A stretch of DNA of 64,000 nucleotides. It comes from Gammaproteobacteria bacterium. GTDB taxonomy: Bacteria > Pseudomonadota > Gammaproteobacteria > Natronospirales > JAIVGZ01. Position numbers and translations under genes: made by a program. Below the pieces are notes generated by a model. It worked only from the letters and a program-made list of their open reading frames with translations. It had not been told where the DNA came from and ran no database searches. Shown piece after piece: positions 22,350 to 63,273 of the stretch; the first letter of the stretch is position 1, and each line of letters begins with the position of its first letter. The stretch is taken from the NCBI GenBank assembly GCA_040882865.1, contig JBBEAN010000008.1:556437-620436 (forward strand). The letters run 5' to 3'.

Positions 22350-23098
22350 GCGACGGGCTCCGCGACGCTCAGCGCGAGCTTGAGGTCGTCCCACGCGCGG
22401 CGCTTCTGTCCCGGTGATCGCAGCAGGTACGCCGGGTGATACGTTGCGACAAGCGGTGTTTCTCGCGTGCCATACCGATGCACGGTGCCGCGCAGTTTGC
22501 CGATTGGCTGGTCGCTTGCGAGCAGCGTCTGCGCGGCGATGCGGCCCACGACGAGAATGAGTTCGGGTTCCACGAGCGCGATTTGGCGATCCAGGAATGC
22601 ACGGCACGCCGTGAGCTCATCAGACTTCGGGTCGCGGTTGTCGGGCGGCCGGCACTTGAGCGTGTTCGCGATGTACACGCGCTCACGCGGCGCGCCCGCG
22701 GCCGCGAGCATCGCATTGAGGAGTTGCCCGGCGCGACCGACGAACGGCTCGCCTTGGCGATCCTCCTCCGCGCCCGGCGCCTCACCCACAAGCATCCAAC
22801 GCGCGTTGCGATCGCCCGTGCCGAATACGGTTTGCGTGCGGCTTCGGTGGAGGTCGCAGGCGGTGCAGGTGGAGACGGTTTGCTGGAGGGTGTCCCAATC
22901 GAGGGTCGAGGCATCGGCGAGTTCGCGGCGCGAAGGCGCCGCTCCAACAGGGGCTGGTGGTGACTCGGGCACATCGCGGCGCAAAGGCGCCGCTCCTACA
23001 GGTGTCGACTCCGGTAATGGCGCCGCTCCTACAATCGGTGGCCTGACATAGAGCTGAACACCGAGGGCGTCGAGGTAGTGGCGGCGCCGCGCGTCCAC
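22346..23098 (-). CDS. uracil-DNA glycosylase, family 4, with REP-derived N-terminal linker
   Basis: Motif A GEAPGAEED, motif B HPAYLLR, Cys cluster (CTACDL...), N-terminal YLDALGVQLY motif. GTG start. Confidence 0.85.
   Translation of the reverse strand: MDARRRHYLDALGVQLYVRPPIVGAAPLPESTPVGAAPLRRDVPESPPAPVGAAPSRRELADASTLDWDTLQQTVSTCTACDLHRSRTQTVFGTGDRNARWMLVGEAPGAEEDRQGEPFVGRAGQLLNAMLAAAGAPRERVYIANTLKCRPPDNRDPKSDELTACRAFLDRQIALVEPELILVVGRIAAQTLLASDQPIGKLRGTVHRYGTRETPLVATYHPAYLLRSPGQKRRAWDDLKLALSVAEPVA
22922..23036 (+). repeat. REP elements x2.5 (orientation A), in frame inside the UDG gene
   Basis: 22922-22953 TTCGCGGCGCGAAGGCGCCGCTCCAACAGGGG. 22973-23004 ATCGCGGCGCAAAGGCGCCGCTCCTACAGGTG. 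Half copy at 23019-23036 GGCGCCGCTCCTACAATC. The 51-nt period equals 17 codons. Confidence 0.9.
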
Positions 23099-23893
23099 TC
23101 AATCAATCTCGGGCTTCGCGGTCCGCCGACGCTGCCAGAGGCGCCACAGCATGACGGCCGGGCCGGACAATGCGTAAAAGAAGGCCATCAGGAACAAGAC
23201 GCGTGGCGGGTTCAGCGCAATCAGGATGAACACGAGCGGGACCATCACAAGCACCGGGAACGACACACGCTGGCTGAGGTTCAAGTCCTTGAAGCTGTAA
23301 TAGCGCACGCGCGAGACCATCAGCGCGCCCGCAGCAATCGTGAAGAAAATCGCGAGGGCGACGAGGTCGCCGCCCGCGTAGCCCATCGTGTTGCCGACCC
23401 ACACGAAGGTTGCGAGCAGCCCTGCGGCGGCCGGGCTCGAGATGCCCACAAAGTAACGTCTGTCGGCGGTGCCGGCCTGGGTGTTGAAGCGCGCGAGGCG
23501 CATCGCGGCCGCGACTGCGTAAAAGAAGGCGGCGAGCCAGCCGATCTTCGACCAGAACCAGCCACCCAGACCCTCGAGCGCCCACTGATACATCACGAGC
23601 GACGGCGCGATGCCGAACGACACGAGGTCCGACATTGAGTCGTACTCCTTGCCGAAGTCGCTCTGGGTGTTGGTCATGCGGGCGATGCGCCCATCGAGCC
23701 CATCGAGGATGCCAGCGATGATGATGGCAATGGCCGCTGTCTGGAATCGTCCGCCCATTGCCGCGATGATTGCGTAAAAGCCTGCGAACATCGCCGCCGT
23801 CGTGAACAGGTTCGGCAACAGATAAATCGCGCGCCGGCGCTCGGCGGGATGGTCGGTGGTCGTGCCTGGCTCTTCGGGGGTCTGCATGGCCAA
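23099..23893 (-). CDS. pssA: CDP-diacylglycerol--serine O-phosphatidyltransferase
   Basis: CDP-alcohol phosphatidyltransferase motif GILDGLDGRIARMTNTQSDFGKEYDSMSDLVSFG. Start is TTG 23893 or ATG 23887. Confidence 0.85.
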   Translation of the reverse strand: MAMQTPEEPGTTTDHPAERRRAIYLLPNLFTTAAMFAGFYAIIAAMGGRFQTAAIAIIIAGILDGLDGRIARMTNTQSDFGKEYDSMSDLVSFGIAPSLVMYQWALEGLGGWFWSKIGWLAAFFYAVAAAMRLARFNTQAGTADRRYFVGISSPAAAGLLATFVWVGNTMGYAGGDLVALAIFFTIAAGALMVSRVRYYSFKDLNLSQRVSFPVLVMVPLVFILIALNPPRVLFLMAFFYALSGPAVMLWRLWQRRRTAKPEID

Positions 23894-23902
23894 GCCAGTC
23901 TA

Positions 23903-24502
23903 TCAGGCGCTCGGGTGGGTGAGCACCCCGAGCAAGTCGGCACCGGCGAGTACGCGGCGGCCGGGTGCAACCGAAATGTGAGCGTCGGCGGGCAGATACA
24001 CCTCCGCAACGCGCGCGAGGCGCAGCCAGCCACAGCGCTGGCCTTGTCCGACGCGCGAACCGTAACCGACGATGGACTTCGGACACGCAAATCCCGGTGC
24101 CGTATTGATGTACAGAATCACATCGTCGCCCTCGTCCGTCTGCAAGCGCATCCCGCGCGGACCGGCGAGGTCGAGCACTTTGCCCTCGACGGGCGCGCGG
24201 CCGCTGTACGCGCCGAAGAAGCTCACCCGGATGCGGATGCGCACCGCGGTGCGGTTCAACGCCGGATCGGGTACCGTTTCGACGAGCTCGACGATGCCGT
24301 CGACGGGGCTCACCACGCCGAGCGGCTCGGATGGAATGATTCGCTCCGGATCGCGGAACTTGAAGACCAGCGCAAATGCCAGCGCACCGGCGAGCAAGGT
24401 CAACTGAGATTCGAAGAACCAGGCCGCGGCAGTGGCGATGACCGCAAGGGTAATGAGGGGCCAACCCTCTCGGGCGACGGCTGGATGACGTTGTCGTGCC
24501 AT
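23903..24502 (-). CDS. phosphatidylserine decarboxylase-related protein (short type)
   Basis: 199 aa with two N-terminal TM helices, located directly upstream of pssA. Sequence resembles short archaetidylserine/phosphatidylserine decarboxylase proenzymes. Confidence 0.7.
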   Translation of the reverse strand: MARQRHPAVAREGWPLITLAVIATAAAWFFESQLTLLAGALAFALVFKFRDPERIIPSEPLGVVSPVDGIVELVETVPDPALNRTAVRIRIRVSFFGAYSGRAPVEGKVLDLAGPRGMRLQTDEGDDVILYINTAPGFACPKSIVGYGSRVGQGQRCGWLRLARVAEVYLPADAHISVAPGRRVLAGADLLGVLTHPSA

Positions 24503-24522
24503 GAAGGGCGCGTATTCTACGC

Positions 24523-29744: not shown

Positions 29745-30158
29745 ATGAAATCCGTACTGTTTCTTTGCACCGGCAACGCCTGCCGCAGCCAAATGGCCGA
29801 GGGTTGGGCGAGGCACCTGCGCGCCGACGACTTCACCGCCCACTCGGCCGGTGTCGCACCACATGGCGTTGATCCGCGCGCGGTCCAGGTGATGGCCGAG
29901 GCCGGCGTCGATATCTCCGACCACCGCTCGAAGCACGTGGACGAGCTGCTCGACGCACCGCTCGACCTCGTCGTGACCGTCTGCGACAGCGCGGCCGAGG
30001 CGTGCCCGGTATTCCCGCGCGCGGTGCCGAAGCGACACCACTCGTTCGAAGACCCACCGGCGCTCGCGCGCGACGCGGAGAATGAAGACGAAGCGCTCGC
30101 GCACTATCGGCGCGTGCGCGACGAGATCCGCGCGTTCGTGGAAGCGCTCGAGGTATGA
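29745..30158 (+). CDS. arsC: arsenate reductase (LMW-PTPase type)
   Basis: P-loop [16 protein letters not shown] (CX5R). 137 aa. Directly followed by ACR3. Confidence 0.85.
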
Positions 30159-31177
30159 GCTTTCTCGATCGCTGGCTGACAATCTGGATCTTCCTCGCGA
30201 TGGCGGCCGGCATCGCGCTCGGCCACTTCGTGCCGACCCTTCCATCCCACCTCGCGGTGTTCGAGGTCGGCACGACGAACCTGCTGATCGCCGCAGGACT
30301 CATCGTGATGATGTACCCGCCGCTCGCGCGCGTGCGGTACGAGCTGCTGCCCCAGGTATTCGCGGACCGACGCGTGCTTGGGCTGTCGCTGTTCCTGAAT
30401 TGGATTGTCGGTCCGCTGTTGATGTTCGCGGTCGCAATCATCTTTCTGCACGACCACCCGCATTACATGACCGGCCTGATTCTCGTCGGCATCGCCCGCT
30501 GCATCGCGATGGTGCTGGTGTGGAACCACCTCGCGCGCGGCAGCGCTGAATACGGGGCCGGCCTCGTCGCGTTCAATTCGCTGTTCCAGATCGTGACCTA
30601 CGGGGTGTACGCGTGGTTCTTCATCACCGTGCTGCCGCGCTGGTTCGGGCTCGAGGGTCAAGTCATCGACATCGAGACGCTCGCGGTCGTGAAGAGCGTG
30701 TTGATCTATCTCGGCATCCCATTCGCCGCGGGTTACTTCTCGCGCAAGGTACTCATCGCGCACCGCGGCCGTGACTGGTACGAGTCGGTATTCGTGCCGC
30801 GCGTGAGCCCGTTCACGTTATACGCATTGCTGTTCACCATCGTCGTGATGTTCGCGCTGCAGCGCGACCTGCTCGACCGCCTGCCCGACGTGTTCTTGAT
30901 CGCGATGCCGCTCGCGTTGTACTTCGTGCTGATGTTCTTCACGAGTTTCTGGCTCGCGTGGAAGATGGGCGCAGATTACGAGCGCAGCACGAGCCTCGCG
31001 TTCACCGCTTCGGGCAACAATTTCGAGCTCGCGATCGCGGTCGCGATCGCCGTCTTCGGCATCGGCTCGCCGGTCGCGTTCGCGACCGTCGTCGGCCCGC
31101 TTGTCGAAGTGCCGGTGCTGATCGCGCTCGTGAACGCGGCGTTCTGGTTACGCCGCCGGTGGTACGCCGGAACTTGA
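30155..31177 (+). CDS. acr3: ACR3 family arsenite efflux transporter
   Basis: 340 aa, 10 TM helices, ACR3-like sequence ([30 protein letters not shown]). ATGA overlap with arsC. Confidence 0.9.
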
Positions 31178-31178
31178 A

Positions 31179-31652
31179 CTAGTTCAGGCGCTCGAGGATC
31201 CGCTCCATCTCCGCGATTTCCTCTTTCTGCGCCCGCACGATTTCGTCGCACAGCGTGAGGATTTGGGGGTCTTTGATGGTCGCTTCCTCGCACATCGTGA
31301 TGGCGCTCGAGTGATGCGGAATCATGGATCGCAGGAACTGCCGGTCGCCGACGCCGGCCTGCGTGCGGATGGCGATGATGAGCGCGATGATCGCCACGAC
31401 GCAGCCTACTTGGATCGCGATGTTCGCGGCCTTGTTCTCGTACATCGAGCGCATCACCACGATCATCATGAGCAGCATCGGCGCGACCATGAGGAGCGCC
31501 ATGTAGACGCGGTTCACGTTCACGTGGAAGTGGCTCGGGGACCAGAGGTTCACGAACATGATCAGGAACATCACGACCGCGTTGATCGAGATGACGAGGG
31601 CGAGTTTCTTGTACATCACGCTATCGTGCGAAAACACCGTGTTCACGGCCAT
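31179..31652 (-). CDS. DUF305 domain membrane protein
   Basis: MIPHHSSAITMCE and the C-terminal helix bundle are typical of DUF305. Three N-terminal TM helices. Start is ATG 31652 or GTG 31667. Confidence 0.65.
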   Translation of the reverse strand: MAVNTVFSHDSVMYKKLALVISINAVVMFLIMFVNLWSPSHFHVNVNRVYMALLMVAPMLLMMIVVMRSMYENKAANIAIQVGCVVAIIALIIAIRTQAGVGDRQFLRSMIPHHSSAITMCEEATIKDPQILTLCDEIVRAQKEEIAEMERILERLN

Positions 31653-31667
31653 CAGGTAATCACCCAC

Positions 31668-31700
31668 AAAAAAAGGCCCCGCCGGAGCGGGGCCTTTTTT
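31668..31700 (-). terminator. rho-independent terminator (A-run and T-run on both sides)
   Basis: AAAAAAA-GGCCCCGC-CGGA-GCGGGGCC-TTTTTT, an 8-bp GC stem. Lies downstream of the LysM gene (minus strand) and just after a REP. Confidence 0.7.
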
Positions 31701-31701
31701 G

Positions 31702-31731
31702 AATCGCGACGCCGAGAGCGTCGCTCCTACA
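31702..31731 (+). repeat. REP element, orientation A, stem variant GCGACGC/GCGTCGC
   Basis: AATCGCGACGCCGAGAGCGTCGCTCCTACA. Abuts the LysM stop codon (TTA 31732-34 on the + strand). Confidence 0.9.
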
Positions 31732-33097
<1,366 letters not shown>

Positions 33098-33104: not shown

Positions 33105-33133
33105 ATCGCGACGCCAAGAGCGTCGCTCCCACA
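33105..33133 (+). repeat. REP element, orientation A, stem variant GCGACGC/GCGTCGC
   Basis: ATCGCGACGCCAAGAGCGTCGCTCCCACA. Ends directly at ATG 33134 of the next gene. Confidence 0.9.
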
Positions 33134-33478
33134 ATGAGATCACTCCCGCCTCACGTGCTTCAGGCGTTGGTACTGCTGTGTTGGGCGGTGTTGTTCTTCG
33201 GGCAGATGGCGTGGTGGGGCTGGCTCGCGGAGGCACCGTTGTTGCCGCGCGCCGCGCTGATCTTCATCGCGGCGGGCCCGCTCCTGCTGCCGCTGCGCGG
33301 GTTGCTACACGATCGACCGCGGAGTTATTTCTGGTTCAACCTGCTCGCGCTGTTGTACTTCGCCGGGGGTATCGCGGGCGCGTACGCGAGCGGCGGGACG
33401 AACTTCGTTGCGTGGTCGCAGATTCTCGCGAGCGTGGGTGGGTTCGCCGCGGGTTTTTACCGCACCAAAGTCCTGTAA
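33134..33478 (+). CDS. DUF2069 membrane protein
   Basis: 114 aa, 4 TM helices. Usual position downstream of wrbA. Confidence 0.65.
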   Translation: MRSLPPHVLQALVLLCWAVLFFGQMAWWGWLAEAPLLPRAALIFIAAGPLLLPLRGLLHDRPRSYFWFNLLALLYFAGGIAGAYASGGTNFVAWSQILASVGGFAAGFYRTKVL

Positions 33479-33518
33479 TCGCGGCACCTGTAGGAGCGGC
33501 GCCTTTGCGCCGCGATTA
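33476..33518 (-). repeat. REP element (orientation B) with extra head fragment, filling the gap between two convergent stop codons
   Basis: TAATCGCGGC-ACCTGTAGGAGCGGCGCCTTTGC-GCCGCGATTA. The 10-bp perfect terminal inverted repeats contain TAA 33476-78 (DUF2069) and TTA 33516-18 (hda stop on the minus strand). Confidence 0.9.
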
Positions 33519-36859: not shown

Positions 36860-37518
36860 TGATGTCCGTCGCCGTTCTCGCGTCGGGCCGCGGCTCGAAT
36901 CTCCAAGCGCTCATCGACGCGGCTGCGCGACCGGGCAGCCAGTTCGCCATTCGGTGCGTGGTCTCGGACCGGGCAGATGCCGGCGCGCTCGCGCGCGCGC
37001 ACGCGGCAGGTATCCCTGCCCATTTCATCGACCCGGCCATACACGCCGACCGCGCATCGTTCGACGCCGCGCTCGACGCCGCGTTCGCCGGACACGACCT
37101 TACGGTCCTCGCGGGCTTCATGCGCGTTTTGGGTTCAGCGCTCGTTCAGAAGTGGGCGGGCAGGATGGTGAACGTCCACCCTTCCCTGCTGCCCAAATAC
37201 CGGGGCCTGAACACCCACCAACGTGCGCTGGACGCCAGCGACACTGAACATGGAGCGAGCGTGCATTTCGTGACCGAGACACTCGATAGTGGACCCGTGA
37301 TTCTGCAGGCGGTCATTCCGGTCAATGCGAGCGACGACGCAGCGACCCTCGCGGCGCGCGTGCAGGCCCAGGAGCACCGCATCTACCCGTTCGTCGTCGG
37401 CCTGTTCGCGCAAGGTCGCGTCGCACTCGTTGACGGAGTCGCGACACTCGACGGCAAGGCGCTGGCCATGCCACTGCGCGTCGACGCGGATACGGACCTC
37501 GAATGTATCGCGGCCTGA
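36859..37518 (+). CDS. purN: phosphoribosylglycinamide formyltransferase
   Basis: VLASGRGSNLQALIDAA, NVHPSLLPKYRGLNTHQRAL, GASVHFVT. ATG 36859 overlaps the purM stop. Confidence 0.9.
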   Translation: MMSVAVLASGRGSNLQALIDAAARPGSQFAIRCVVSDRADAGALARAHAAGIPAHFIDPAIHADRASFDAALDAAFAGHDLTVLAGFMRVLGSALVQKWAGRMVNVHPSLLPKYRGLNTHQRALDASDTEHGASVHFVTETLDSGPVILQAVIPVNASDDAATLAARVQAQEHRIYPFVVGLFAQGRVALVDGVATLDGKALAMPLRVDADTDLECIAA

Positions 37519-43290: not shown

Positions 43291-43295
43291 CCAGG

Positions 43296-47964: not shown

Positions 47965-47998
47965 AACGGTGAAATTTAATGCCGCGGTGCCGGTCTTC
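47953..47998 (+). promoter_or_regulatory. candidate ECF-type promoter and triple TGAAA repeat upstream of the RiPP operon
   Basis: CTGAAATG-CTGAAACG-GTGAAATT (47953-47976). TGAAAT (47970-75) is followed after 17 nt by GTCTTC (47993-98). GGAGG RBS at 48014-18. Confidence 0.3.
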
Positions 47999-48025
47999 TA
48001 AGTACCCCCAACTGGAGGAAACACC

Positions 48026-48361
48026 ATGACGAAGTCCCGTAACTACACGCTGGCGCTCGCCGTCGGCACCGCCCTGGCCGCCGCGCCCGCAGCGGCCGCC
48101 GCCAACCCGTTCGGCCTCTCCGACCTCGGCGCCGGTTACATGCTCGGCGCGGCAGCAGCGGGCGACCCGGCGCCGGCAGCGAAAGACGCCGAAGGCAAAT
48201 GCGGCGAGGACAAGGCCAAGAAGGACGCCGAGGGCAAGTGCGGTGAAGGCAAGTGCGGTGAGGACAAGGACAAGGCCGAGGCGAAGGATGGCGAGGGCAA
48301 GTGCGGTGAGGAGAAAGACAAGGCCAAGACGAAAGATGGCGAGGGTAAGTGCGGGGCCTGA
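48026..48361 (+). CDS. secreted Cys-repeat RiPP precursor (five EGKCG motifs; HvfA/oxazolin-like metallophore precursor)
   Basis: Signal peptide MTKSRNYTLALAVGTALAAAPAAAAA. After it comes NPFGLSDLGAGYML, then a K/E/D-rich tail with EGKCG x5 (Cys codons at 48200, 48239, 48254, 48302, 48350), ending EGKCGA-stop. Directly followed by DUF692 and DUF2063 genes. Confidence 0.8.
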   Translation: MTKSRNYTLALAVGTALAAAPAAAAANPFGLSDLGAGYMLGAAAAGDPAPAAKDAEGKCGEDKAKKDAEGKCGEGKCGEDKDKAEAKDGEGKCGEEKDKAKTKDGEGKCGA

Positions 48362-49158
48362 ACGGCACCGGCCTTGGCCTGCGCCGGCCGTTGATCGAGC
48401 CCTTGCTCGAACAGCGGCCGGCGCAACTTTCGTTTCTGGAAGTCGCACCCGAAAACTGGCTCGGTATCGGCGGCCGACTGGGCCGGCAGCTGCGCGCGCT
48501 GTCAGAGCGTTACCCGCTCGCGAGCCACGGCCTCTCGCTGTCGCTCGGGGGTCCCGGCCCGCTCGATGAGGCCTTCGTGCTCGAGCTCAAACGGTTTTTC
48601 GACGAATACGGCATCACGACGTGCAGCGAGCACCTGTCCTACTGCAGCGACGATGGCCAGCTTTATGACCTCCTTCCGATTCCCTTCACCGAGGAAGCCG
48701 TCCACTGGGTCGCCGCGCGCATTCGCCGCGTCGAAGCCCTGCTAGAACGCCCGCTCGCCATCGAGAACGTGTCGTACTACGCAGCGCCTGGCGCCGAGAT
48801 GCGCGAGATCGAATTCGTGAACGCGGTCCTCGAGGAAGCGGATTGCCGACTGCTGCTCGACGTGAACAACGTGCTCGTCAATTCGGTCAACCACGCGTAC
48901 GACCCGGTCGAGTTCATCCACGCTTTGCCCGCGGACCGCGTCGAGTACTTGCACATGGCCGGGCACACCATCGAGGCCGAAGACCTGCGCATCGATACAC
49001 ATGGCAGCGACGTGCCGGACGAGGTGTGGCGATTGCTCGCCGTCGCGTACGCACACTGCGGGCCACTGCCGACGCTGCTCGAGCGCGACTTCAACATCCC
49101 TCCGCTCGACACGCTGCTCGCAGAAGTCGACCGCATCGTCGAAGCACAGCGCGCATGA
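48349..49158 (+). CDS. DUF692 / MNIO family peptide maturase (MbnB-HvfB-BufB like)
   Basis: Motif series SHGLSLSLGG, SEHLSYC, AIENVSYY, LLLDVNN, YLHMAGH, IDTHG (TIM-barrel metal-ligand pattern of DUF692). GTG 48349 overlaps the precursor by 13 nt. Confidence 0.85.
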   Translation: MRGLNGTGLGLRRPLIEPLLEQRPAQLSFLEVAPENWLGIGGRLGRQLRALSERYPLASHGLSLSLGGPGPLDEAFVLELKRFFDEYGITTCSEHLSYCSDDGQLYDLLPIPFTEEAVHWVAARIRRVEALLERPLAIENVSYYAAPGAEMREIEFVNAVLEEADCRLLLDVNNVLVNSVNHAYDPVEFIHALPADRVEYLHMAGHTIEAEDLRIDTHGSDVPDEVWRLLAVAYAHCGPLPTLLERDFNIPPLDTLLAEVDRIVEAQRA

Positions 49159-49871
49159 GTCTGCGCGCCGACCAACTCGAATTCGCCGCGCACTTGCGCG
49201 ACCCCGACGGACACCCGGCCCCGCCGGGCCTCGAGCCACGCCGCGTCGCCGTGTACCGCGGCCTGCTGTTCAAGAACGTGCTCAGCTTCATGCAGAACGG
49301 TTTTCCGGTCATCCGCAAGACGCTCGGCGACGACGCGTTCGCGACGCTCGTGCGCACATGGTTCGCGCAACACCGCGCGACGACGCCGATTTTTCCGCGC
49401 ATGCCGGGCGAGCTCATCGCATGGCTGGCCGATACACCGCGCGCCGCCGCGGGTGCGCCGCCGTGGCTCACAGAGCTTGCGCACTACGAATGGATCGAAC
49501 TGGAACTCCAACTGGATCCGGCGGAAATCGACGTCGACGGCGTGGACGCCGACGGCGATTTGCGCATGGGGGTGCCGGTGTTATCGCCGCTCGCGCGCGT
49601 CCTCGCGTACGATTGGCCGGTCCACCGGATCGGACCGGATTACCGTCCCGAGACGCCGGAACCGACCACCCTGCTCGTGTACCGAGACCGCAGTGACGGC
49701 GTGCGCTTCATGGAGACCAACGCGATGACGCACGCCCTGTTGGCGCTGTTGCGGGACAACGAGACCGCGACCGGTGAGACGCTGCTGCGCGGGCTCGCGG
49801 TCCGTGATGCGGCGCTGTCTCTGCTCGAGTCGCTGCGTGAGCGCGACATCATCGCCGGGGCACGGTCATGA
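49155..49871 (+). CDS. DUF2063 family partner protein (HvfC/BufC-like)
   Basis: N-terminus MSLRADQLEFAAHLRDP...RVAVYRGLLFKNV... is typical of DUF2063. ATGA overlaps on both sides. Confidence 0.8.
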   Translation: MSLRADQLEFAAHLRDPDGHPAPPGLEPRRVAVYRGLLFKNVLSFMQNGFPVIRKTLGDDAFATLVRTWFAQHRATTPIFPRMPGELIAWLADTPRAAAGAPPWLTELAHYEWIELELQLDPAEIDVDGVDADGDLRMGVPVLSPLARVLAYDWPVHRIGPDYRPETPEPTTLLVYRDRSDGVRFMETNAMTHALLALLRDNETATGETLLRGLAVRDAALSLLESLRERDIIAGARS

Positions 49872-50350
49872 CCATTCTCGTCGTGGTTCGCGATTGTCTG
49901 GAAAAGGTCGGCACGTGGTTGCCACAGCTTGCGCTCCGGCTGCTGCTCGCCTGGGAGTACGGCGAAGCGGGCGTGACCAAGCTGCGCGGTGAGAACTGGT
50001 TCGGGCACGTGCAGGACAAGTTCCTGTTCCCGTTCAACTACGTGCCGCCGGCGATCAGTTGGACGCTCGCGACCTGGACGGAAATCATCGGCGCGCTCCT
50101 GCTCGTCATCGGTCTCGGAACGCGCTTCGTCAGCGTTGCGTTCATCGGGCTCACGGTCGTCGCCATCGGCGCCGTCCATTGGCCCGACCAGTGGTCAACG
50201 ATCGGTGACCTGCTGAGCGGGTACACGATTTCCGACCAGGGTCATGGCAATTTCAAGTTGCCGGTCATATTCATCGTCATGCTCCTGCCCTTATTGTTCT
50301 GGGGAGCAGGCAAGGCGAGCGTCGACCATTGGATCCGGACGCGTGACTGA
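49868..50350 (+). CDS. DoxX family membrane protein (BufD/GigT-like)
   Basis: 160 aa, 4 TM helices. Coupled to the DUF2063 gene by an ATGA overlap. Confidence 0.8.
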   Translation: MTILVVVRDCLEKVGTWLPQLALRLLLAWEYGEAGVTKLRGENWFGHVQDKFLFPFNYVPPAISWTLATWTEIIGALLLVIGLGTRFVSVAFIGLTVVAIGAVHWPDQWSTIGDLLSGYTISDQGHGNFKLPVIFIVMLLPLLFWGAGKASVDHWIRTRD

Positions 50351-50855
50351 CAAGCGTCGCAAGTTCGGGACCCTCGTCGCAGCGCTCCTGCCGCAGCTGT
50401 ACCGGTATGCCTACTGGTTGAATCAGGACGGGCAGATCGCCGAGGACGTGGTGCAGGACGCATTGTTACGCGCGTGGCGCGCAATCGATTCCCTGAAAGA
50501 CGAGACGCGGGCGAAGGCGTGGTTGCTCACCATCGTCCGGCGGGAGCACGCGCGTCGGTTCGAGGGCGTGCAGCCGGTCTTCGTCGACCTCGGCGCGCTC
50601 GAACTCGCGGACACGGCCTATCCGGCGGAGGCCGCTGCCGACGCCGCTGACTTGCGGCGGCTCATTGCTGAACTCGAGCCCGCCTACCGCGAACCGCTGG
50701 TGTTACAGGTCGTCGTCGGTCTGTCCTGCGAGGAGATCGCCGAACTGCTGGACTTGAACAAAGCGACGGTGCTGACGCGCTTGTTCCGCGCCCGGCGCCT
50801 TTTGACCCAACGCGTGGCTGCGCCCGTCGTCACGGACGCAGGAGGAATCCTATGA
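50343..50855 (+). CDS. ECF (group IV) RNA polymerase sigma factor
   Basis: Region 2 (DVVQDALLRAWRAIDSL, WLLTIVRRE) and region 4 HTH (LSCEEIAELLDLNKATVLTRLFRARRLL). GTG 50343 overlaps the DoxX stop by 8 nt. Confidence 0.85.
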   Translation: MTDKRRKFGTLVAALLPQLYRYAYWLNQDGQIAEDVVQDALLRAWRAIDSLKDETRAKAWLLTIVRREHARRFEGVQPVFVDLGALELADTAYPAEAAADAADLRRLIAELEPAYREPLVLQVVVGLSCEEIAELLDLNKATVLTRLFRARRLLTQRVAAPVVTDAGGIL

Positions 50856-51547
50856 ACTGTCTCGAGTATCGGCGCACGCTGTTGGAGCGGCCCACCGACC
50901 CCGGTAGCGGCGCGCGCGAACACCAGCTCGCGTGTCGCGCCTGCGCCGACTGGACAACCCAGCAGCAACGGTTCGAACAGCGGCTCGCGTACGCCCTGTC
51001 CGTTCCGGTTCCCGAGGGCGTCGCCGAGCGCGTGATGCTGCACGCCGCCTGGCGCTCACCCCGTCCGCATTGGCAAACCATCGCCGCGACGGTCGCCGCC
51101 GTCACGCTCGGCGCACTACTTGCTATCCAGCTCGCCGACCAGCCGGTGCTCGCACAATCGGTGCTCACGCACGTGTACGACGAACCAGACCTGCTAATAC
51201 CGGGCAGCGAGCCCGTCGATCCCGCACGACTGAAGGCGGTGCTGGAGCGCGTTGGCGGCACACTCGACGGCACAATCGGTTCGGTGCTGCACGCGGGACT
51301 TTGCCCGGTCGGCGGCAAACTCGCCGCGCACCTCGTCGTCGCTGGTGAACACGGACCGATTGCGGTGCTCGTGATGCCGGAATACGGCGTCGCGACAAAC
51401 ACAGCCGTCGGTGACGACAAGCTGCACGGCGCAATCGTGCCGGTTGGCCGTGGCAGCGTCGCGGTCATCGGTTTCCGTGGAGAATCGCTTGATGTGCTCG
51501 CAGAGCGCGTGCGCACTCAACTAAGTATCGCTGACCATGGCGCTTGA
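50852..51547 (+). CDS. anti-sigma factor (zinc-binding HxxxCxxC, single TM; DUF3379-like)
   Basis: MNCLEYRRTLL...EHQLACRAC (H-x3-C-x2-C), TM helix WQTIAATVAAVTLGALLAIQL, and a periplasmic C-domain. ATGA overlap with the sigma gene. Confidence 0.8.
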   Translation: MNCLEYRRTLLERPTDPGSGAREHQLACRACADWTTQQQRFEQRLAYALSVPVPEGVAERVMLHAAWRSPRPHWQTIAATVAAVTLGALLAIQLADQPVLAQSVLTHVYDEPDLLIPGSEPVDPARLKAVLERVGGTLDGTIGSVLHAGLCPVGGKLAAHLVVAGEHGPIAVLVMPEYGVATNTAVGDDKLHGAIVPVGRGSVAVIGFRGESLDVLAERVRTQLSIADHGA

Positions 51548-51932
51548 CCCACGACTCGCGGCGGACACGCTGTCCGTTGCGCAACTCCCGCTTTGCAGTG
51601 TGCGGCTGATGAATGACGCGCGTTACCCGTGGATCATCCTGGTTCCGCGCGTCGAGGATGCCGTCGAGCTGCTCGACCTCTCGGATGCCGACCAACAGCG
51701 CCTATACGACGAAATCAGGCAGTGCGCGCGCGTGCTACAGGAACACACAAGCGCCGACAAACTGAACATCGCTGCCCTCGGTAACGTCGTGCGCCAGCTG
51801 CACGTCCACGTCGTCGCGCGCTTTCACGACGACGACGCGTGGCCGAAGCCGGTCTGGGGCGTGCACCCGGCGGTCCCCTATGAGGACGACGCCGCGGCAA
51901 CGCTGATTCAGGCGCTGGCGACGCGCCTATGA
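51537..51932 (+). CDS. HIT family hydrolase
   Basis: Histidine triad QLHVHVVARF. 131 aa. Overlaps the anti-sigma gene by 11 nt. Confidence 0.8.
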   Translation: MALDPRLAADTLSVAQLPLCSVRLMNDARYPWIILVPRVEDAVELLDLSDADQQRLYDEIRQCARVLQEHTSADKLNIAALGNVVRQLHVHVVARFHDDDAWPKPVWGVHPAVPYEDDAAATLIQALATRL

Positions 51933-52013
51933 ATCGCGGCGCGAAGGCGCCGGCCTATTCGCGGCGCAAAGGCGCCGTTTATTCGCGGCGCAAAGGCGCC
52001 GCTCCTACAGTTG
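51931..52013 (+). repeat. three tandem REP units (orientation A), 24-26-nt period
   Basis: GAATCGCGGCGCGAAGGCGCCGGCCT / ATTCGCGGCGCAAAGGCGCCGTTT / ATTCGCGGCGCAAAGGCGCCGCTCCTACAGTTG. Only the last unit keeps the CTCCTACAG tail. The array begins inside the HIT stop codon (TGA 51930-32). Confidence 0.9.
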
Positions 52014-52021
52014 CGGCGCGA

Positions 52022-54430: not shown

Positions 54431-54437
54431 TCACCAG

Positions 54438-54469
54438 CAGGTGGGAGCGACACTCTCTGTGTCGCGATG
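54438..54469 (-). repeat. REP element, orientation B, stem variant GCGACAC/GTGTCGC
   Basis: CAGGTGGGAGCGACACTCTCTGTGTCGCGATG. Confidence 0.85.
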
Positions 54470-54586
54470 AAAATGCCACGGCGCCGGGCATGGCTCGCTC
54501 AGCTCGTGGGAAGTCACAAACCGACTTCCATCTCGCCTCGCGAGATGCCCATCGCCGGGTTCGCGCTGGTGGACCCACCGGAAGAA

Positions 54587-54618
54587 CAGGTGGGAGCGAC
54601 GCTCTTGGCGTCGCGAAT
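54587..54618 (-). repeat. REP element, orientation B, stem variant GCGACGC/GCGTCGC
   Basis: CAGGTGGGAGCGACGCTCTTGGCGTCGCGAAT. Ends 2 nt before the lpdA stop codon. Confidence 0.9.
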
Positions 54619-54620: not shown

Positions 54621-56375
54621 TCACAAATCCGTCAGCGTCCCCGCGAACGCTTCCGCCGAGAAGGCCACCGTCTCCGACAGCGTCGGGTGGGGGTGGATCA
54701 CAAGGCCGATGTCGTGCGCATCCGCGCCCATCTCGATCGCGAGCACCGCTTCTGAAATGAGATCGCCCGCGTTCGGGCCGACGATGCCCGCGCCGATCAC
54801 GCGTCCGGTCTTTTCATCGAACAGCAACTTGCTGAACCCGTCCTGCGCGTCGAGCGCGAGCGCACGACCGCTCGCCGCCCACGGGAAGCGGCCCTTGCCG
54901 ACCTTGATGCCTTTCTGTTTGGCTTCGGTCTCGGTCATGCCGCACCACGCGACCTCCGGGTCGGTATATGCGACCGACGGAATCACGCGCGCGTCGAACG
55001 CCGATTTTTGGCCGGCGGTGACTTCCGCCGCGACTTTCGCTTCGTGCGTCGCCTTGTGCGCGAGCATCGGATTGCCGGCGACGTCGCCGATCGCGAAGAT
55101 GTTCGGCTGGTTCGTGCGCATCTGTTCGTCCACGGGGATGAAGCCGCGGTCGTCGACCGTGACGCCAGCCGCGTCCGCGCCAAGGCCGCGCCCGTTCGGC
55201 TTGCGTCCGATGGCAACGAGTACACGGTCGAAGGTCTGAGATTCCGGCGCGTCCTTGCCGTCGAACGACACCGCGATGCCGCCTTTTTTCGCCTCGAGTT
55301 TCGCGACTTTCGTCGAGAGCCAGATGGCTTCGCACTTCGACTCGAGGCGCTTCTGGAGCACCTTCACGAGGTCGCGGTCGGTTCCCGGCATCAGTCCATC
55401 GGAAAGCTCCACGACACTGACTTTCGTACCCAGCGCCGCGTACACCGTCGCCATTTCGAGCCCGATGATGCCGCCGCCGACCACGAGCAGGCTCGCCGGC
55501 ACATCCTCGAGCGCGAGCGCGCCGGTGGAGTCGATGATGCGCGGGTCTTCGGGCGCACCCGGGAGCTTCACGACGGACGAACCGGCCGCGATGATCGCGT
55601 GCTCGAAATGGATGAGTTCGTTCTTGTCGCCCTCGACCGCGAGGTGATTCGCGTCCTTGAAGCGGCCGACGCCGGTCACGACCGATACCTTGCGTTTTTT
55701 CGCGAGCGCCTTGAGCCCGCCCGTGAGCTGACCGACCACGCCGTCCTTGAACCCGCGCAGCTTTTCGAGGTCGAGCTTCGGCTCACCGAATGAAACGCCG
55801 TGCGTGCCGAGCGTCTCGACTTCCGCCATCACGCGCGCGACGTGCAGCAATGCTTTCGACGGGATGCAGCCCACGTTCAGGCATACGCCGCCGAGCGTCG
55901 GGTAGCGCTCGACCAATATGACTTTCTTGCCGAGGTCGGCTGCGCGGAACGCCGCGGTATAGCCGCCGGGGCCGGCGCCGAGGACCAGCACATCGCACGC
56001 CAACGTGGTGTCCTTACGGGTGGGAGCGGCGCTCTGCGCCGCGATTGGCTCGGATTTCTCCGGCGCCGGTTTTTCCTCGCGGCGCGAAGGCGCCGCTCCT
56101 GCATCCAGGTCACCTGTAGGAGCGGCACCTTCGTGCCGCGATCCGTCAGAAGCTTCGAGCTCGGCAATCTCGCTGCCCTGCGACACCTTGTCGCCGGCCT
56201 TGACCAGGAGCTTCGTGACTTTACCGGCGTGGGTCGATGGCACGTCCATCGCAGCCTTGTCGGTCTCGATGGTGATCAGGCCCTGCTCGGCCTCGACCGA
56301 TTCGCCTTCGGCGACCAGCACCTCGATGACCTCGACGTCCGAGAAATTCCCGATGTCGGGAACGAGAATTTTCAT
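54621..56375 (-). CDS. lpdA: dihydrolipoyl dehydrogenase (E3) with N-terminal lipoyl domain
   Basis: Lipoyl domain (ITIETDKAAMDVPS), FAD site LVLGAGPGGY, redox disulfide CLNVGCIPSK, and HPHPTLSE. 584 aa. Confidence 0.9.
   Translation of the reverse strand: MKILVPDIGNFSDVEVIEVLVAEGESVEAEQGLITIETDKAAMDVPSTHAGKVTKLLVKAGDKVSQGSEIAELEASDGSRHEGAAPTGDLDAGAAPSRREEKPAPEKSEPIAAQSAAPTRKDTTLACDVLVLGAGPGGYTAAFRAADLGKKVILVERYPTLGGVCLNVGCIPSKALLHVARVMAEVETLGTHGVSFGEPKLDLEKLRGFKDGVVGQLTGGLKALAKKRKVSVVTGVGRFKDANHLAVEGDKNELIHFEHAIIAAGSSVVKLPGAPEDPRIIDSTGALALEDVPASLLVVGGGIIGLEMATVYAALGTKVSVVELSDGLMPGTDRDLVKVLQKRLESKCEAIWLSTKVAKLEAKKGGIAVSFDGKDAPESQTFDRVLVAIGRKPNGRGLGADAAGVTVDDRGFIPVDEQMRTNQPNIFAIGDVAGNPMLAHKATHEAKVAAEVTAGQKSAFDARVIPSVAYTDPEVAWCGMTETEAKQKGIKVGKGRFPWAASGRALALDAQDGFSKLLFDEKTGRVIGAGIVGPNAGDLISEAVLAIEMGADAHDIGLVIHPHPTLSETVAFSAEAFAGTLTDL
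56016..56046 (-). repeat. REP element, orientation B, 3-nt loop, in frame inside lpdA
   Basis: ACGGGTGGGAGCGGCGCTCTGCGCCGCGATT. Sense-strand translation IAAQSAAPTR. Confidence 0.9.
56075..56144. repeat. REP doublet (tail-to-tail, no spacer) in frame inside lpdA
   Basis: 56075-56110 CCTCGCGGCGCGAAGGCGCCGCTCCTGCATCCAGGT (orientation A). 56111-56144 CACCTGTAGGAGCGGCACCTTCGTGCCGCGATCC (orientation B, stem variant GCGGCAC/GTGCCGC). Sense-strand translation GSRHEGAAPTGDLDAGAAPSRRE. Confidence 0.9.
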
Positions 56376-56378: not shown

Positions 56379-56447
56379 GAATCGCGGCGCAAAGGCGCCG
56401 CTCGTACAACTCTGGCACCTGTAGGAGCGGCGCCTTTGCGCCGCGAC
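56379..56447. repeat. REP doublet (REPIN-like), tail-to-tail, 5-nt spacer, aceF-lpdA intergenic
   Basis: GAATCGCGGCGCAAAGGCGCCGCTCGTACAAC-tctgg-CACCTGTAGGAGCGGCGCCTTTGCGCCGCGAC. Confidence 0.9.
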
Positions 56448-56454: not shown

Positions 56455-57735
56455 TCATAGCACCAACCCTTCGACGTCGTGCAAGACTTTCGCCAAGTGC
56501 GTCGTGAACCGCGCAGCGGCCGCGCCGTCGATCACGCGATGGTCGTACGACAGCGACAGCGGCAGCATGAGCCGCGGCTTGAAGTCGTCGCCGTCCCACA
56601 CGGGCTTCATCTGCGACTTCGACACGCCGAGGATCGCGACTTCGGGCGCGTTCACGATCGGCGTGAACGCGGTGCCGCCGATACCGCCGAGGCTCGACAC
56701 CGAGAAGGTACCGCCCTGCATGTCCTTCGCTTTGAGTTTCTTGTCGCGCGCCTTGCCGCTGATCTCGCCGAGTTCCTTCGCGATGTCGAAGACGTTCTTC
56801 TTGTCCGCGTCGCGGATGACCGGTACGACGAGACCCTCGGGGGTGTCGACCGCGAAGCCGATGTGGAAGTACTGCTTCACGATGAGCTGGTCACCGTCGA
56901 GCGACGAATTGAAGCGCGGGAATTCCTTCAGCGTCAGCGCACACGCCTTGATGATGAACGCGAGCGGCGTGAGCTTCGCGCCGAGCTTCTCCGCGTCGGC
57001 CTTCAGCGACTGGCGCACCGTTTCCATATCGGTGATGTCCGCTTCGTCGTGCTGCGTGACGTGCGGAATCGTCGCCCACGCGCGCTGCAGGTGCGGCCCG
57101 GCGATTTTCTGGATGCGCGTGAGCAGCTCGGCCTCGACCGGCCCCCACTGCGAGAAATCGATGCGCGGCGCGGGCTCGAACGACGGGCCGCCCATACCGC
57201 CGCCCTGCATCACGCCCTTCACGAACGCTTTCACGTCGTCGTGGGTGATACGGCCTTTTTTTGCGCTGCCGTTGACGCGCGTGAGGTCGACGCCGAGTTC
57301 GCGCGCAAGTTTGCGGACCGATGGTGACGCGTGGGGTGGCGTGCCGTCAGCGCGGCGGCTGGGCGCCGGTTCCTGTTCGCGGTGCGAAGGCGCCGCTCCT
57401 ACAGGTGGCTCCGAAGGCGCGCCTTTTTCTTCGCGGCGCGAAGGTGCAGGTTCCTTTTCGCGGCGCGAAGGCGCCGCTCCTACATCTTGCTTCTCGGTGG
57501 CTTCGATCTCCGCGATCGGCGTGCCTTCGGAGACCTTGTCGCCGGCCTTCACGAGCAGCTTCGTGATCTTGCCCGCGTGCGTCGACGGCACGTCCATCGC
57601 GGCCTTGTCGGTTTCGATGGTGATGAGGCCGTCCTCGACCGCGACGGTGTCGCCCTCGGCGACCATGACTTCGATGACTTCGACGCCCTCGAAGTTACCG
57701 ATATCGGGGACCTTGATCTGGACCGTGTCAGACAT
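56455..57735 (-). CDS. aceF: dihydrolipoamide acetyltransferase (E2), single lipoyl domain
   Basis: Lipoyl domain (ITIETDKAAMDVPS), E3-binding domain (SPSVRKLARELGVDLTRVNGSAKKGRI), and catalytic SLSYDHRVIDGA. Confidence 0.9.
   Translation of the reverse strand: MSDTVQIKVPDIGNFEGVEVIEVMVAEGDTVAVEDGLITIETDKAAMDVPSTHAGKITKLLVKAGDKVSEGTPIAEIEATEKQDVGAAPSRREKEPAPSRREEKGAPSEPPVGAAPSHREQEPAPSRRADGTPPHASPSVRKLARELGVDLTRVNGSAKKGRITHDDVKAFVKGVMQGGGMGGPSFEPAPRIDFSQWGPVEAELLTRIQKIAGPHLQRAWATIPHVTQHDEADITDMETVRQSLKADAEKLGAKLTPLAFIIKACALTLKEFPRFNSSLDGDQLIVKQYFHIGFAVDTPEGLVVPVIRDADKKNVFDIAKELGEISGKARDKKLKAKDMQGGTFSVSSLGGIGGTAFTPIVNAPEVAILGVSKSQMKPVWDGDDFKPRLMLPLSLSYDHRVIDGAAAARFTTHLAKVLHDVEGLVL
57345..57486 (+). 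repeat. four to five REP-derived units (orientation A), in frame inside aceF
   Basis: 57375-57408 GTTCGCGGTGCGAAGGCGCCGCTCCTACAGGTGG. 57429-57450 CTTCGCGGCGCGAAGGTGCAGG. 57456-57486 TTTCGCGGCGCGAAGGCGCCGCTCCTACATC. A degenerate unit lies at 57345-57373. Confidence 0.85.
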
Positions 57736-60412: not shown

Positions 60413-60489
60413 GCCGGGGAGTGGGCCTTATGCGTTAACGGGACCTGTTATCATCGGCGTTTGCCGGTCCGCGGTCAAGGCGATAAGCA

Positions 60490-61995: not shown

Positions 61996-62158
61996 CGAGT
62001 ATGAGGTGCCCGCGGCCGCTACGGGCTGCGCACCTCGAGCCGTTCGCTGTCTGTGCTTAAAACCGTCAGGTGGCCTCCGGGAACCCGACTCACTATCGAG
62101 GTGCGAGCCACGCTGCGCGGCTTCGCGGCATGCTCACTACACCATCGCGTGGGTGCGA

Positions 62159-62187
62159 CAGGTGGGAGCGGCGCTCTGCGCCGCGAT
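62159..62187 (-). repeat. REP element, orientation B, 3-nt loop
   Basis: CAGGTGGGAGCGGCGCTCTGCGCCGCGAT. Lies 12 nt upstream of the pyrC ATG. Confidence 0.9.
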
Positions 62188-62198
62188 AGGGGCTTATA

Positions 62199-63242
62199 AT
62201 GCCCGCGATGGATTCTCTGACGATCACCCGACCGGACGACTGGCACCTGCACCTGCGCGACGGCGCTGCGATGGCGTCGATCCTGCCGCACAGCGCCGCG
62301 CAGTTCGCGCGCGCAATCGTGATGCCCAACCTCAAACCGCCCGTCACGACCGTTGCGCTGGCGCGCGCGTACCGCGACCGTATTCTCGCGGCGCGGCCGA
62401 ACGGCTCGACGTTCGAGCCCCTGATGACGCTGTACCTGACCGACAACACCCGCGCGACCGAAATTCTCGCGGCGAAGGACAGCGGGTTCGTACACGCGGT
62501 GAAACTCTACCCCGCCGGCGCGACCACGAACTCTGACGCAGGCGTCACCGATCTCGACAAGGCCATGCCTGCGCTCGAAGCCATGGCCGAGTGCGGCCTG
62601 CCGCTACTTGTTCACGGCGAGGTCACCGACCCGGGTATCGACCCGTTCGATCGCGAGGCCGTCTTCCTCGAGCGTGTGCTCGCACCGCTCGTCGCGCGCC
62701 TACCGACTTTGAAAATCGTGCTCGAACACGCGACGACACAGGAGGCCGTCGACTTCGTGCGCGACGCGCCTTCGACCGTCGCCGCGACGATCACCGCGCA
62801 CCATTTACTGCACGACCGCGCCGACCTGTTCCGCGGCGGGCTCCGTCCGCATTATTTCTGCCTTCCCGTGCTGAAACGCGCGCACCACCGCGAGGCGCTC
62901 ATCGCCGCAGCGACCGCAGGCGACTCGAAATTTTTCCTCGGCACCGACAGTGCACCGCACGCGCGTGCGGACAAAGAAAGTGATTGCGGCTGCGCAGGTA
63001 TCTACACCGCGCACGCGGCGCTCGAACTCTACGCGGAGGTCTTCGACACCGCAGGACGTCTCGATCATCTCGAGGGTTTTGCGTCGCACTACGGGGCGGA
63101 CTTCTACGGTCTGCCCCGCAATGAAGGGACCGTTACGCTCGCGCGCGATGCATGGACGGTACCGGCGAATTACGCACTCGGCGACGGCACGGTCGTGCCG
63201 CTACGGGCGAACGAGAATATCCTCTGGCGACTCACTGCTTAA
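62199..63242 (+). CDS. pyrC: dihydroorotase (homodimeric class II type)
   Basis: [39 protein letters not shown]. Start is ATG 62199 or 62208. Confidence 0.95.
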
Positions 63243-63273
63243 TCGCGGCGCGAAGGCGCCGCTCCTACAATTG
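63240..63273 (+). repeat. REP element, orientation A, overlapping the pyrC stop codon
   Basis: TAATCGCGGCGCGAAGGCGCCGCTCCTACAATTG. The TAA at 63240-42 is the pyrC stop. Confidence 0.9.

Follow-up and report, generated by a model that had tools for sequence, protein, structure and literature searches.

A probable GTAG-tagged REP family with preserved hairpins between and within genes of an uncultured gammaproteobacterium

What keeps a 30-nt hairpin unit intact when it recurs along one stretch of a bacterial genome, with some of its copies lying inside genes, and to which kind of repeat does such a unit belong? We addressed this question in a 64-kb stretch of contig JBBEAN010000008.1 (assembly GCA_040882865.1, positions 556,437 to 620,436) from an uncultured gammaproteobacterium, referred to below as the window, in which a preliminary description had counted about 28 copies of a repetitive extragenic palindromic (REP) sequence. 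Combining nhmmer with a structural scan, we recovered 24 full and approximately 5 partial copies, in good agreement with that estimate. They are distributed over 16 sites in 41 kb, all within 22922–63274, with the partial copies at 23019, 37518, 51932, 51957 and 57430, and have the family consensus TC-GCGGCGC-RAAG-GCGCCGC-TCCNACA. The full copies occur in both orientations (15 plus, 9 minus; strand bias not significant, P = 0.31). The G+C content is 63–67% throughout the window, and a 25-nt core allowing up to 3 mismatches matched 15 times, compared with 0 matches in 100 dinucleotide shuffles. The family is confirmed as real and non-random. A search of the whole window with Rfam 15 at the gathering threshold returned 0 matches.

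Read on the strand that carries the tag, which is complementary to the consensus, each copy consists of the tag GT[A/G/T]G, the dinucleotide GA, the first arm of a 7-bp stem, a loop, the second arm and GAT. A 7-bp stem with a 3–5-nt loop was present in 24 of 24 full copies, and 168 of the 168 stem cells in their alignment were paired, two of them as G.U. Pairs 4 and 6 change on both sides, from G:C to A:T, in 6 and 2 copies, respectively (8 cells), and the other five pairs are invariant or show a wobble change only. The preliminary description had held that the hairpin itself is preserved, beyond the primary sequence, and had proposed testing its covariation. The complete pairing of the alignment upholds this view, as does a shuffle test in which 0 of 500 shuffles reached the observed covariation score and percentage of paired positions. 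Sliding the stem register lowered pairing to 24–66%. The predicted folding energy of a single REP is approximately −8 to −11 kcal/mol as DNA and −15.5 kcal/mol as RNA.

Outside the stem, the GA next to the tag never varies (TC between stem and CNAC in the plus orientation), and the prefix ATC/TTC, which is GAT/GAA on the tagged strand, hardly does. The tag is GTAG in 9 copies, GTGG in 8, GTTG in 4 and something else in the remaining 3. All stem variants listed previously could be located, displaced by no more than 1–3 nt: GCGACGC/GCGTCGC at 31703, 33105, 38251, 38303 and 54584, GCGACAC/GTGTCGC at 54435 and GCGGCAC/GTGCCGC at 56110. The loops AAAG, GAAG, CAAGA and AGA were likewise found, together with CGAGA and AGAGA.

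The relation between stem and flank proved looser than had been proposed. According to the preliminary description, CTCCTACA goes with the GGC stem and CTCCCAC with the GAC stem, defining two subfamilies; this rule is overstated, with exceptions in the window as well as in the related genomes introduced below. The copy at 31703 combines a GAC stem (GCGACGC/GCGTCGC) with TCCTACA, those at 37530, 56014 and 62156 combine GGC stems (GCGGCGC/GCGCCGC) with TCCCAC, and in the related genomes GGC with TCCCAC is as frequent as GGC with TCCTAC. Two subfamilies can nevertheless be separated by loop length and tail, which do so better than the stem. In type A, the loop is RAAG (4 nt) and the tail TCC[T/A/C]ACA, whereas type B combines a loop of 5 nt (CRAGA) or 3 nt (AGA/GGA) with the tail TCCCACCTG. 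Both stem versions are found on type A and on type B.

To place the family beyond the window, we searched for the pattern TCGCGNNNCRAAGGNNNCGCTCCNACA in one genome per species, leaving the three inner stem pairs free. This returned at least 73 loci (designated below by L numbers), and among the matches listed all but two fell into two metagenome-assembled genomes (MAGs), binchicken_co31_113 and binchicken_co31_439, each classified as 'uncultured Gammaproteobacteria bacterium'. In 91 of the 96 matches listed, the inner pairs left free by the scan were fully paired. The window was 83–86% identical to six MAG loci in synteny with it and thus represents a third, related species. The only plasmid BLAST hit of the consensus was a 20-nt match in Bosea, which is at chance level.

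A pairing-blind census, in which up to 2 changes were allowed per arm, gave 177 matches compared with 19 in a reversed-sequence control. Approximately 164 copies satisfied the pairing-blind criteria, and 154 of these had perfect stems whereas only about 9–10 carried genuine one-sided changes, mostly G.T wobbles. The perfect stems comprise just four versions, one for each way of placing G:C or A:T at pair 4 and pair 6, with 106, 24, 12 and 12 copies (tallies of copies rather than events). At both variable pairs, the 5′ base was strongly associated with the 3′ base (P = 6 × 10^−34 and 8 × 10^−27). The preliminary description would have been contradicted by many broken stems or by a motif limited to this region; we found neither, since intact stems predominate and the two MAG species hold at least 140 REP copies at at least 70 loci.

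Comparison of positions across the three genomes revealed both conservation and turnover. At 17 shared positional orthologues, the REP core was 90% identical, compared with 56% for the 40-nt flanks. Approximately 25–30 sites were found in one genome only, several as clean indels, and in comparisons of species only about 15% diverged, half or so of the sites are lineage-specific. Clean presence or absence was seen for the window copies at 31703, 33105 and 44376 and for L075:2464 and L007:4381, each of which may be a gain or a loss. We read this pattern as the mark of a REP population under constraint and, at the same time, subject to turnover or homogenisation.

The tag also differs between genomes. 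GTAG or GTGG makes up more than 90% of MAG copies. In type-A copies, the third base of the tag is particular to each genome: 49 of 52 carry GTAG in co31_113 and 40 of 52 carry GTGG in co31_439, while the window has GTAG in 8, GTTG in 4 and GTGG in 0. The genome-typical difference extends to positional orthologues with base-identical boundaries. Tag-differing pairs are window 63242/L004, 33484/L010 and 22973/L075 and, between the MAGs, L016/L072, L049/L050 and L025/L055. The copy at 63242 is identical to its L004 counterpart base for base except for the tag (GTAG versus GTGG), and the L010 counterpart of 33484 also carries GTGG. L016/L072 and L049/L050 differ by the same linked set, namely GTAG with GCAC/GTGC versus GTGG with GCGC/GCGC.

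Copies are further organized into higher-order units. As described previously, the window contains three inverted doublets, all arranged tail to tail with the tag ends inside, and each folding as one long hairpin; their positions agree with the earlier ones to within 1–3 nt. The first (38252–38292/38295–38335) has 41-nt arms that are 88% complementary, and over 38251–38336 its folding energy is −46.5 kcal/mol as DNA and −72.6 kcal/mol as RNA. The second (56382–56408/56420–56446) and third (56077–56103/56115–56141) have 27-nt arms, 96% and 89% complementary, respectively, around 11-nt spacers, and are 83% identical to each other over 65 nt. As DNA, the three doublets fold at −32 to −46 kcal/mol (z = −8 to −12). 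In the doublet at 56077/56110, one member has the GCAC/GTGC stem, so that its small hairpin is perfect and the long hairpin gains mismatches. Pairing within the REP is thus kept at the expense of pairing between REPs, which points to the small hairpin as the constrained unit. In the pooled data, 14 A/A tail-to-tail dimers have gaps of 12–17 nt and 6 B/B dimers have gaps of 30–42 nt.

We consider it likely, at roughly 85%, that these copies are a lineage-specific, GTAG-tagged REP family of the GTAG-1 architecture, present as singlets, tail-to-tail doublets, tandem arrays and composites. By analogy with characterized systems, the single-stranded hairpin with its tag would be the substrate of a REP-associated tyrosine transposase (RAYT, also TnpA-REP; an HUH Y1 enzyme) encoded elsewhere in the genome. 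Such an enzyme would accept complementary stem changes and reject mismatches; given that rejection, only hairpin-competent variants would be propagated or retained, and variant 'master' copies could spread. Transcribed copies would probably also form RNA hairpins at 3′ ends. The relevant rules have been worked out for the TnpA-REP of S. maltophilia, which tolerates complementary block changes in the stem with mild effect, whereas a mid-stem mismatch nearly abolishes cleavage; the tag is required, and GTTG abolishes cleavage (Corneloup et al. 2021, PMC8266576). We infer that an enzyme obeying these rules would yield the observed stem pattern.

No RAYT was found in the material searched, as the preliminary description had stated for the window. 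With the E. coli TnpA-REP (PDB 4ER8) as query, tblastn identified no candidate in the window, where nothing fell below E = 0.7 (best 0.72), or in the 73 loci. A RAYT profile built from enterobacterial relatives of E. coli RayT (best 120 matches) reached a best E-value of 0.34, and an HUH...Y regular expression matched 0 times, in the window and the 73 MAG loci. Pfam gave no Y1_Tnp hit among the approximately 60 open reading frames (ORFs) of the window, and neither tnpA nor tnpB was found near REPs across the window and 446 kb of related loci.

Several points weigh against this explanation of the copies. A RAYT was found neither in the 64-kb window nor in 446 kb of related loci, so that we can only infer the link to such an enzyme. 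Some REP-bearing genomes lack a RAYT altogether. Window tags depart from GTAG, with GTTG in 4 and GTGG in 8 copies; because GTTG abolishes cleavage in S. maltophilia, many copies are possibly immobile relics or depend on a different enzyme specificity. Finally, the strong conservation of positional orthologues could reflect host function and not mobility.

How the paired stem changes arise is a separate matter. The earlier claim that they imply selection or templated propagation acting on the hairpin holds as regards constraint on the hairpin; it does not hold as evidence of many independent compensatory events, which appear to be few because variation is limited to transitions at two stem pairs, in four combinations. 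To the alternative that the changes arise by copying, and not by independent point mutations compensated and selected site by site, we assign a little less than even odds. Here variant arms or whole copies would replace residents through gene conversion, excision and re-insertion in place, or hairpin-templated repair; palindrome-templated (quasi-palindrome) repair is a candidate route. The proposal bears only on the origin of the covariation and is compatible with the identification of the copies as REPs. It would account for the restriction to four stem versions, a two-by-two set of two transition pairs, for the switch of tag and stem as one linked combination at L016/L072 and L049/L050, and for the fact that the tag base of type-A copies follows the genome even where the boundaries of orthologues are identical. 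Chimeric copies with one arm of each version point the same way (L042, GCGGCGC/GTGTCGC; L060, GCGACGC/GCGCCGC). However, copies with a single G.T wobble (57376 and 37530 in the window, L031 and L062) look like the intermediates of a stepwise path from G:C through G.T to A:T. The stem with A:T at both variable pairs also occurs on both type-A and type-B backgrounds, two different loops and tails, which requires at least about four double changes or recombinations.

The positional orthologues suggest that copy replacement or concerted evolution contributes at least as much as compensation by point mutation. On the sequences of these three genomes, in-place selection, gene conversion, palindrome-templated repair and RAYT-mediated replacement are all candidates. 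We consider it unlikely that resident REPs are being rewritten in place, with orthologues adopting the tag base and stem version of their own genome and the compensated GCAC/GTGC pair being carried along in two cases. If true, the REP population would be homogenised within each genome faster than the species diverge, by gene conversion or by RAYT-mediated excision and re-insertion, possibly following a shift in RAYT specificity, and the orthologues would hold a direct sequence signature of ongoing RAYT–REP co-evolution at fixed sites.

A different possibility is that the repeats are host cis-elements that are not now mobile, such as stabilizers of RNA 3′ ends or gyrase- or IHF-like binding sites, maintained by purifying selection. 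We regard this as doubtful, although their placement is suggestive. On a gene map based on long ORFs, third-position G+C and Pfam, 0 of 16 sites lie between divergent genes; REPs sit mainly just 3′ of genes, between convergent or same-direction genes, and several adjoin stop codons, as at 31703, where a stop codon, a REP and a terminator follow one another. The conservation of the core relative to the flanks, the tolerance of G.T pairs, as in RNA, and the stability of the RNA hairpin also fit a host element. By contrast, a host element does not readily explain why copies occur in both orientations relative to transcription, why they are read in frame in three genes, why about half of the sites are lineage-specific at about 15% divergence, or why doublets and arrays are stereotyped. 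The literature moreover shows wide variation in family size among species, and there is no Rfam match. Nor do the copies act as intrinsic (Rho-independent) terminators, a reading that we rejected: none appeared among the terminator-like sites of 22–42 kb, and no T-run follows the hairpin, which instead runs into CTCCNACA.

Very unlikely, in our view, is that A- and B-type hairpins represent opposite ends of one larger, IS200/IS605-derived non-autonomous element, akin to palindrome-associated transposable elements (PATEs) or miniature inverted-repeat transposable elements (MITEs), with singlets and homodimers as its debris. This idea draws on a composite unit of about 180 nt that occurs eight times in MAG loci (L003, L049, L059 twice, L066, L069, L072 and L073), in which an inverted B-type REP and a forward A-type REP face each other head to head across a palindromic spacer of about 115 nt. 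The spacer is a second repeat, GGGCACC...GGAAGTCAC...GACTTCC...GGTGCCC, and the window holds a variant at 54435–54617 in which it is flanked by two B-type REPs of the same orientation. The spacing of head-to-head pairs (128–134-nt gaps) and of B/A tandem pairs (about 30 nt) is also stereotyped in the pooled data. Against this, A/A and B/B tail-to-tail dimers outnumber A/B composites, singlets and homodimers make up most of the copies, pairs arranged head to head around structured spacers are on record as ordinary REP arrangements, and the searches above found no tnpA or tnpB nearby.

There is virtually no chance that the matches are a by-product of G+C-rich, low-complexity or Ala/Pro-rich linker coding sequence: several copies do lie in the Ala/Pro-rich aceF and lpd linkers, but we rejected both a chance and a coding-repeat origin on the shuffles (0 in 100, versus 15 observed), the reversed-sequence control (19 versus 177), the intergenic position of most copies and the recurrence of the 30-nt unit, including its conserved non-palindromic tail, at more than 70 loci elsewhere.

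The copies within genes show that the label 'extragenic' is true of this family only in part. Of the 29 copies in the window, at least 8 are translated in frame as part of aceF, lpd or rnfC, and inspection of the consensus shows that stop codons interrupt only one of its six reading frames. The lpd gene (54621–56375, minus strand) encodes 584 amino acids (aa), with a lipoyl domain at aa 3–73, an E3 body that begins at aa 128 and, in between, a linker (aa 74–127). This linker contains three in-frame REPs at 56014–56142, namely 56014–56045 (minus, B2-type), 56077–56104 (plus) and 56110–56142 (minus, GCGGCAC/GTGCCGC), and reads ...GSRHEGAAPTGDLDAGAAPSRREE...IAAQSAAPT.... The neighbouring aceF gene for E2 (56455–57735, minus strand, 426 aa) has a lipoyl domain at aa 6–77 and an E3-binding domain at aa 134–169. 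Its linker (aa 78–133) corresponds to an in-frame, REP-derived stretch at 57351–57489 (plus) with full copies at 57376–57408 (GCGGTGC, with a T.G wobble) and 57457–57489, a partial copy at 57430–57447 and a degenerate unit at 57351–57375. An 81-nt unit is duplicated within it (57351–57410 versus 57432–57491), and the peptide repeats are (V)GAAPSRRE, PAPSRRE and GAAPSHRE. One operon carries 6–7 REP copies, and most of each linker is REP-encoded. The NCBI annotation of the source MAG (MEX0900417-20) contains the same 584-aa and 426-aa proteins.

In rnfC, two type-A copies in plus orientation (43935–43967 and 44376–44408) are each read in frame as IAAQRRRS, the second between the SLBB and Fer4 domains. 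The MAG orthologue L035 also has the first of these, and a related MAG has the lpd and aceF copies as well; the copy at 44376 is missing from the MAG orthologue and, judging from this alignment, is a lineage-specific insertion or deletion. A conservative ORF test identified in-frame copies in other MAG genes as well. The hairpins within the coding sequences of aceF, lpd and rnfC are perfect or wobble-paired. We interpret the in-frame copies in the flexible aceF and lpd linkers and in rnfC as probably tolerated insertions; less likely, their perfect hairpins might be kept for a role at the nucleic-acid level at domain boundaries.

The remaining sites are intergenic or lie at gene junctions. The first, 22922–23036 (plus), is a tandem cluster of two full type-A copies, 22922–22954 (loop GAAG, tail TCCAACA) and 22973–23005 (loop AAAG, tail TCCTACA), and a 3′ half copy (23019–23036). 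It lies between the stop codon of a pssA-like gene on the minus strand (23099) and the start region of a UDG-family gene, and two copies are present at the same place in the orthologous locus L075. At 31703–31736 (plus), a copy with the GCGACGC/GCGTCGC stem, a CGAGA loop and a TCCTACA tail is found between the stop codon of a minus-strand gene and a canonical intrinsic terminator (31668–31700); it is missing in the MAG orthologue. A B-type copy at 33105–33138 (plus; GCGACGC CAAGA GCGTCGC TCCCAC), between the FMN_red stop and the DUF2069 start, is missing in L010. Next to it, at 33484–33516 (minus), a type-A copy equal to the consensus separates the convergent DUF2069 and hda genes.

At 37515–37561 (minus), a B2-type copy (GCGGCGT AGA GCGCCGC TCCCAC, with an outer T.G pair) followed by a 3′ half copy occupies the junction between the purN stop and the DUF3108 start. 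The doublet at 38251–38336, made up of B-type copies at 38251–38284 (plus) and 38303–38336 (minus) with their GTGG ends inside, lies between convergent DUF3108 and dcd. Two type-A copies with a GTTG tag follow, one at 38925–38957 (plus) between the dcd start and the apbC/mrp stop, both genes being on the minus strand, and one at 43259–43291 (plus) after the stop codon of rnfB (43249) and before an ATG near 43296 that probably starts rnfC.

Farther along, a tandem array at 51932–52014 (plus), with a period of 24–25 nt, lies between convergent HIT and UDG-like genes. Its first two units (51932–51952 and 51957–51977) are bare hairpins without the GTAG tail, and only the third (51982–52014, type A) is a full REP; the array may have originated by slippage on the hairpin. 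The unit at 54435–54617 (minus), described above for its palindromic spacer, consists of B-type copies at 54435–54468 (GCGACAC/GTGTCGC) and 54584–54617 (GCGACGC/GCGTCGC) between convergent GNAT and lpd genes. The A/A doublet at 56381–56447 (56381–56413, plus; 56415–56447, minus) separates the lpd start from the aceF stop and has a doublet as its counterpart in L044. The last two sites are a B2-type copy at 62156–62187 (minus; GCGGCGC AGA GCGCCGC TCCCACCTGT), which separates the stop codon of pepA from the start of an amidohydrolase gene, and a type-A copy at 63242–63274 (plus). The latter extends with its 5′ flank into the TAA that ends the amidohydrolase gene and lies upstream of an RNase T gene.

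Several observations concern the surroundings of these sites. No copy lies in the first part of the window (1–22900) despite its intergenic space; the density of the remainder predicts about 9 sites there (Poisson P of approximately 10^−4). The genes in this REP-free part are mostly sensory, regulatory or accessory (GGDEF, HD-GYP, NnrS, a sigma-54 two-component system, BCCT and MoxR/TgpA), and those in the REP-rich part are housekeeping genes. The longest ORFs of the UDG-family (22346–23098) and DUF3108 (37503–38246) genes cross REPs at their 5′ ends, with Pfam domains that begin at aa 92 and aa 39, respectively; the true starts are probably 3′ of the REPs, in which case longest-ORF calls would be over-extended.

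Genes for an LMWPc arsenate-reductase-like protein, an SBF/Acr3-like transporter and an FMN_red (ArsH-like) protein at 29745–33097 form a possible arsenic-resistance cluster; the copies at 31703 and 33105 sit in this putative cluster, and both are missing in the related MAG. Approximately 3.6 kb of the window (about 47963–51550), including a DUF2063/NGO1945-like gene, has no counterpart at the syntenic position of L044 (4728–4743), and this window-only segment ends beside the array at 51932. Finally, another repeat of at least about 150 nt, containing GTCGAGGGAAGCGGCAGCGGC, GCCGGGAGCGACCGAGACGG and GGAGCGGACGGACAAC, is present in 9–10 copies near REPs of co31_113 (L003, L006, L028, L032, L057, L059, L061 and L074) and does not occur in the window.

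The REP family matters little beyond annotation, where it has some uses. It marks an uncultured gammaproteobacterial lineage and can serve for masking or typing, it accounts for odd Ala/Pro/Arg-rich repeats in the linkers of the pyruvate dehydrogenase (PDH) proteins E2 and E3 and in RnfC, and it warns gene callers that an N-terminal ORF extension through REPs may be wrong. The three-genome comparison, with its high core conservation, high site turnover and genome-specific tags, provides a small, clean data set for the question of whether REP populations are kept by in-place selection or by continual copying.

The closest match among known systems is the GTAG-1 class. Di Nocera, De Gregorio and Rocco (2013) sorted REPs by their unpaired GTAG tag and defined GTAG-1/2 by two extra unpaired GW bases between tag and stem, with a conserved 3-nt tail opposite (PMC3733652). 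In their survey, most REP families split into subfamilies whose stems differ by complementary substitutions, and G.T pairs are frequent. Family 1 has more tail-to-tail than head-to-head dimers, and REPs are located mostly near 3′ ends, between ORFs that converge or run in the same direction, but also inside genes (PMC3733652). The window family agrees with GTAG-1 in its unpaired GTAG/GTRG tag, its GW spacer (here GA), its 3-nt tail, its complementary-stem subfamilies and G.T pairs, the greater frequency of tail-to-tail dimers, and its position after convergent or same-direction genes with occasional intragenic copies (PMC3733652). It differs from the type examples in its 7-bp stem and loop, GCGGCGC-RAAG-GCGCCGC, which is not among the consensuses compared, in its tag, which is often GTGG or GTTG, in its uncultured gammaproteobacterial host and in its many in-frame copies. 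A full-text literature search did not find the consensus sequence. As quoted in PMC11585281, the 35-bp REP of P. putida KT2440, the type example of GTAG-1 (Aranda-Olmedo 2002), reads c-ggcctcTTCGCGGGtaaaCCCGCtCCtaCaggg and has, like the window REPs, an invariant TCGCGG...CCGCTCCTACAGG.

The doublets resemble the REPINs of P. fluorescens SBW25, in which REPs likewise form inverted pairs with a preferred spacing, fold into a single long hairpin and recur as units (Bertels and Rainey 2011, PMC3116915). Compensatory changes are also common in SBW25 REPs. The start-to-start distances there are 71 and 110 bp, whereas the spacers here are 11–17 nt (A/A) and about 30 nt (B/B); and each SBW25 group is defined by a flanking RAYT, whereas none was found beside the window REPs (PMC3116915). 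The REPs and bacterial interspersed mosaic elements of E. coli share with our family a GTAG tag and a hairpin, read by TnpA-REP as single-stranded DNA (PDB 4ER8, PMC3479197), but have a bulged, imperfect stem, whereas the REPtron Sm (group 3) of S. maltophilia has a perfect palindrome, as here (PMC8266576). Both the E. coli and the S. maltophilia REPtrons include TnpA-REP, which was found in neither the 64 kb nor the 446 kb searched here.

Translated palindromes also have precedents. Rickettsia palindromic elements and intragenic GTAG and CGTC REPs are, like the copies here, inserted in frame in functional genes, plausibly in linkers or loops (PMC3733652). Intragenic REP insertions have been suggested to sit in flexible linkers, and Additional file 3 of the same study lists REPs in E2 genes, namely Oter_4191 and Oter_4192 of O. 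terrae and Sala_1235 of S. alaskensis (PMC3733652). Unlike these published cases, the family described here has 6–7 copies in one operon, with hairpins that are still perfect within coding sequence. Thus, what is new is the sequence family, given that the architecture, compensatory stems, dimers and intragenic copies, including those in E2, are already known (PMC3733652, PMC3116915); the only mildly unusual features are how densely translated copies fill the PDH operon and that the tag at positional orthologues follows the genome.

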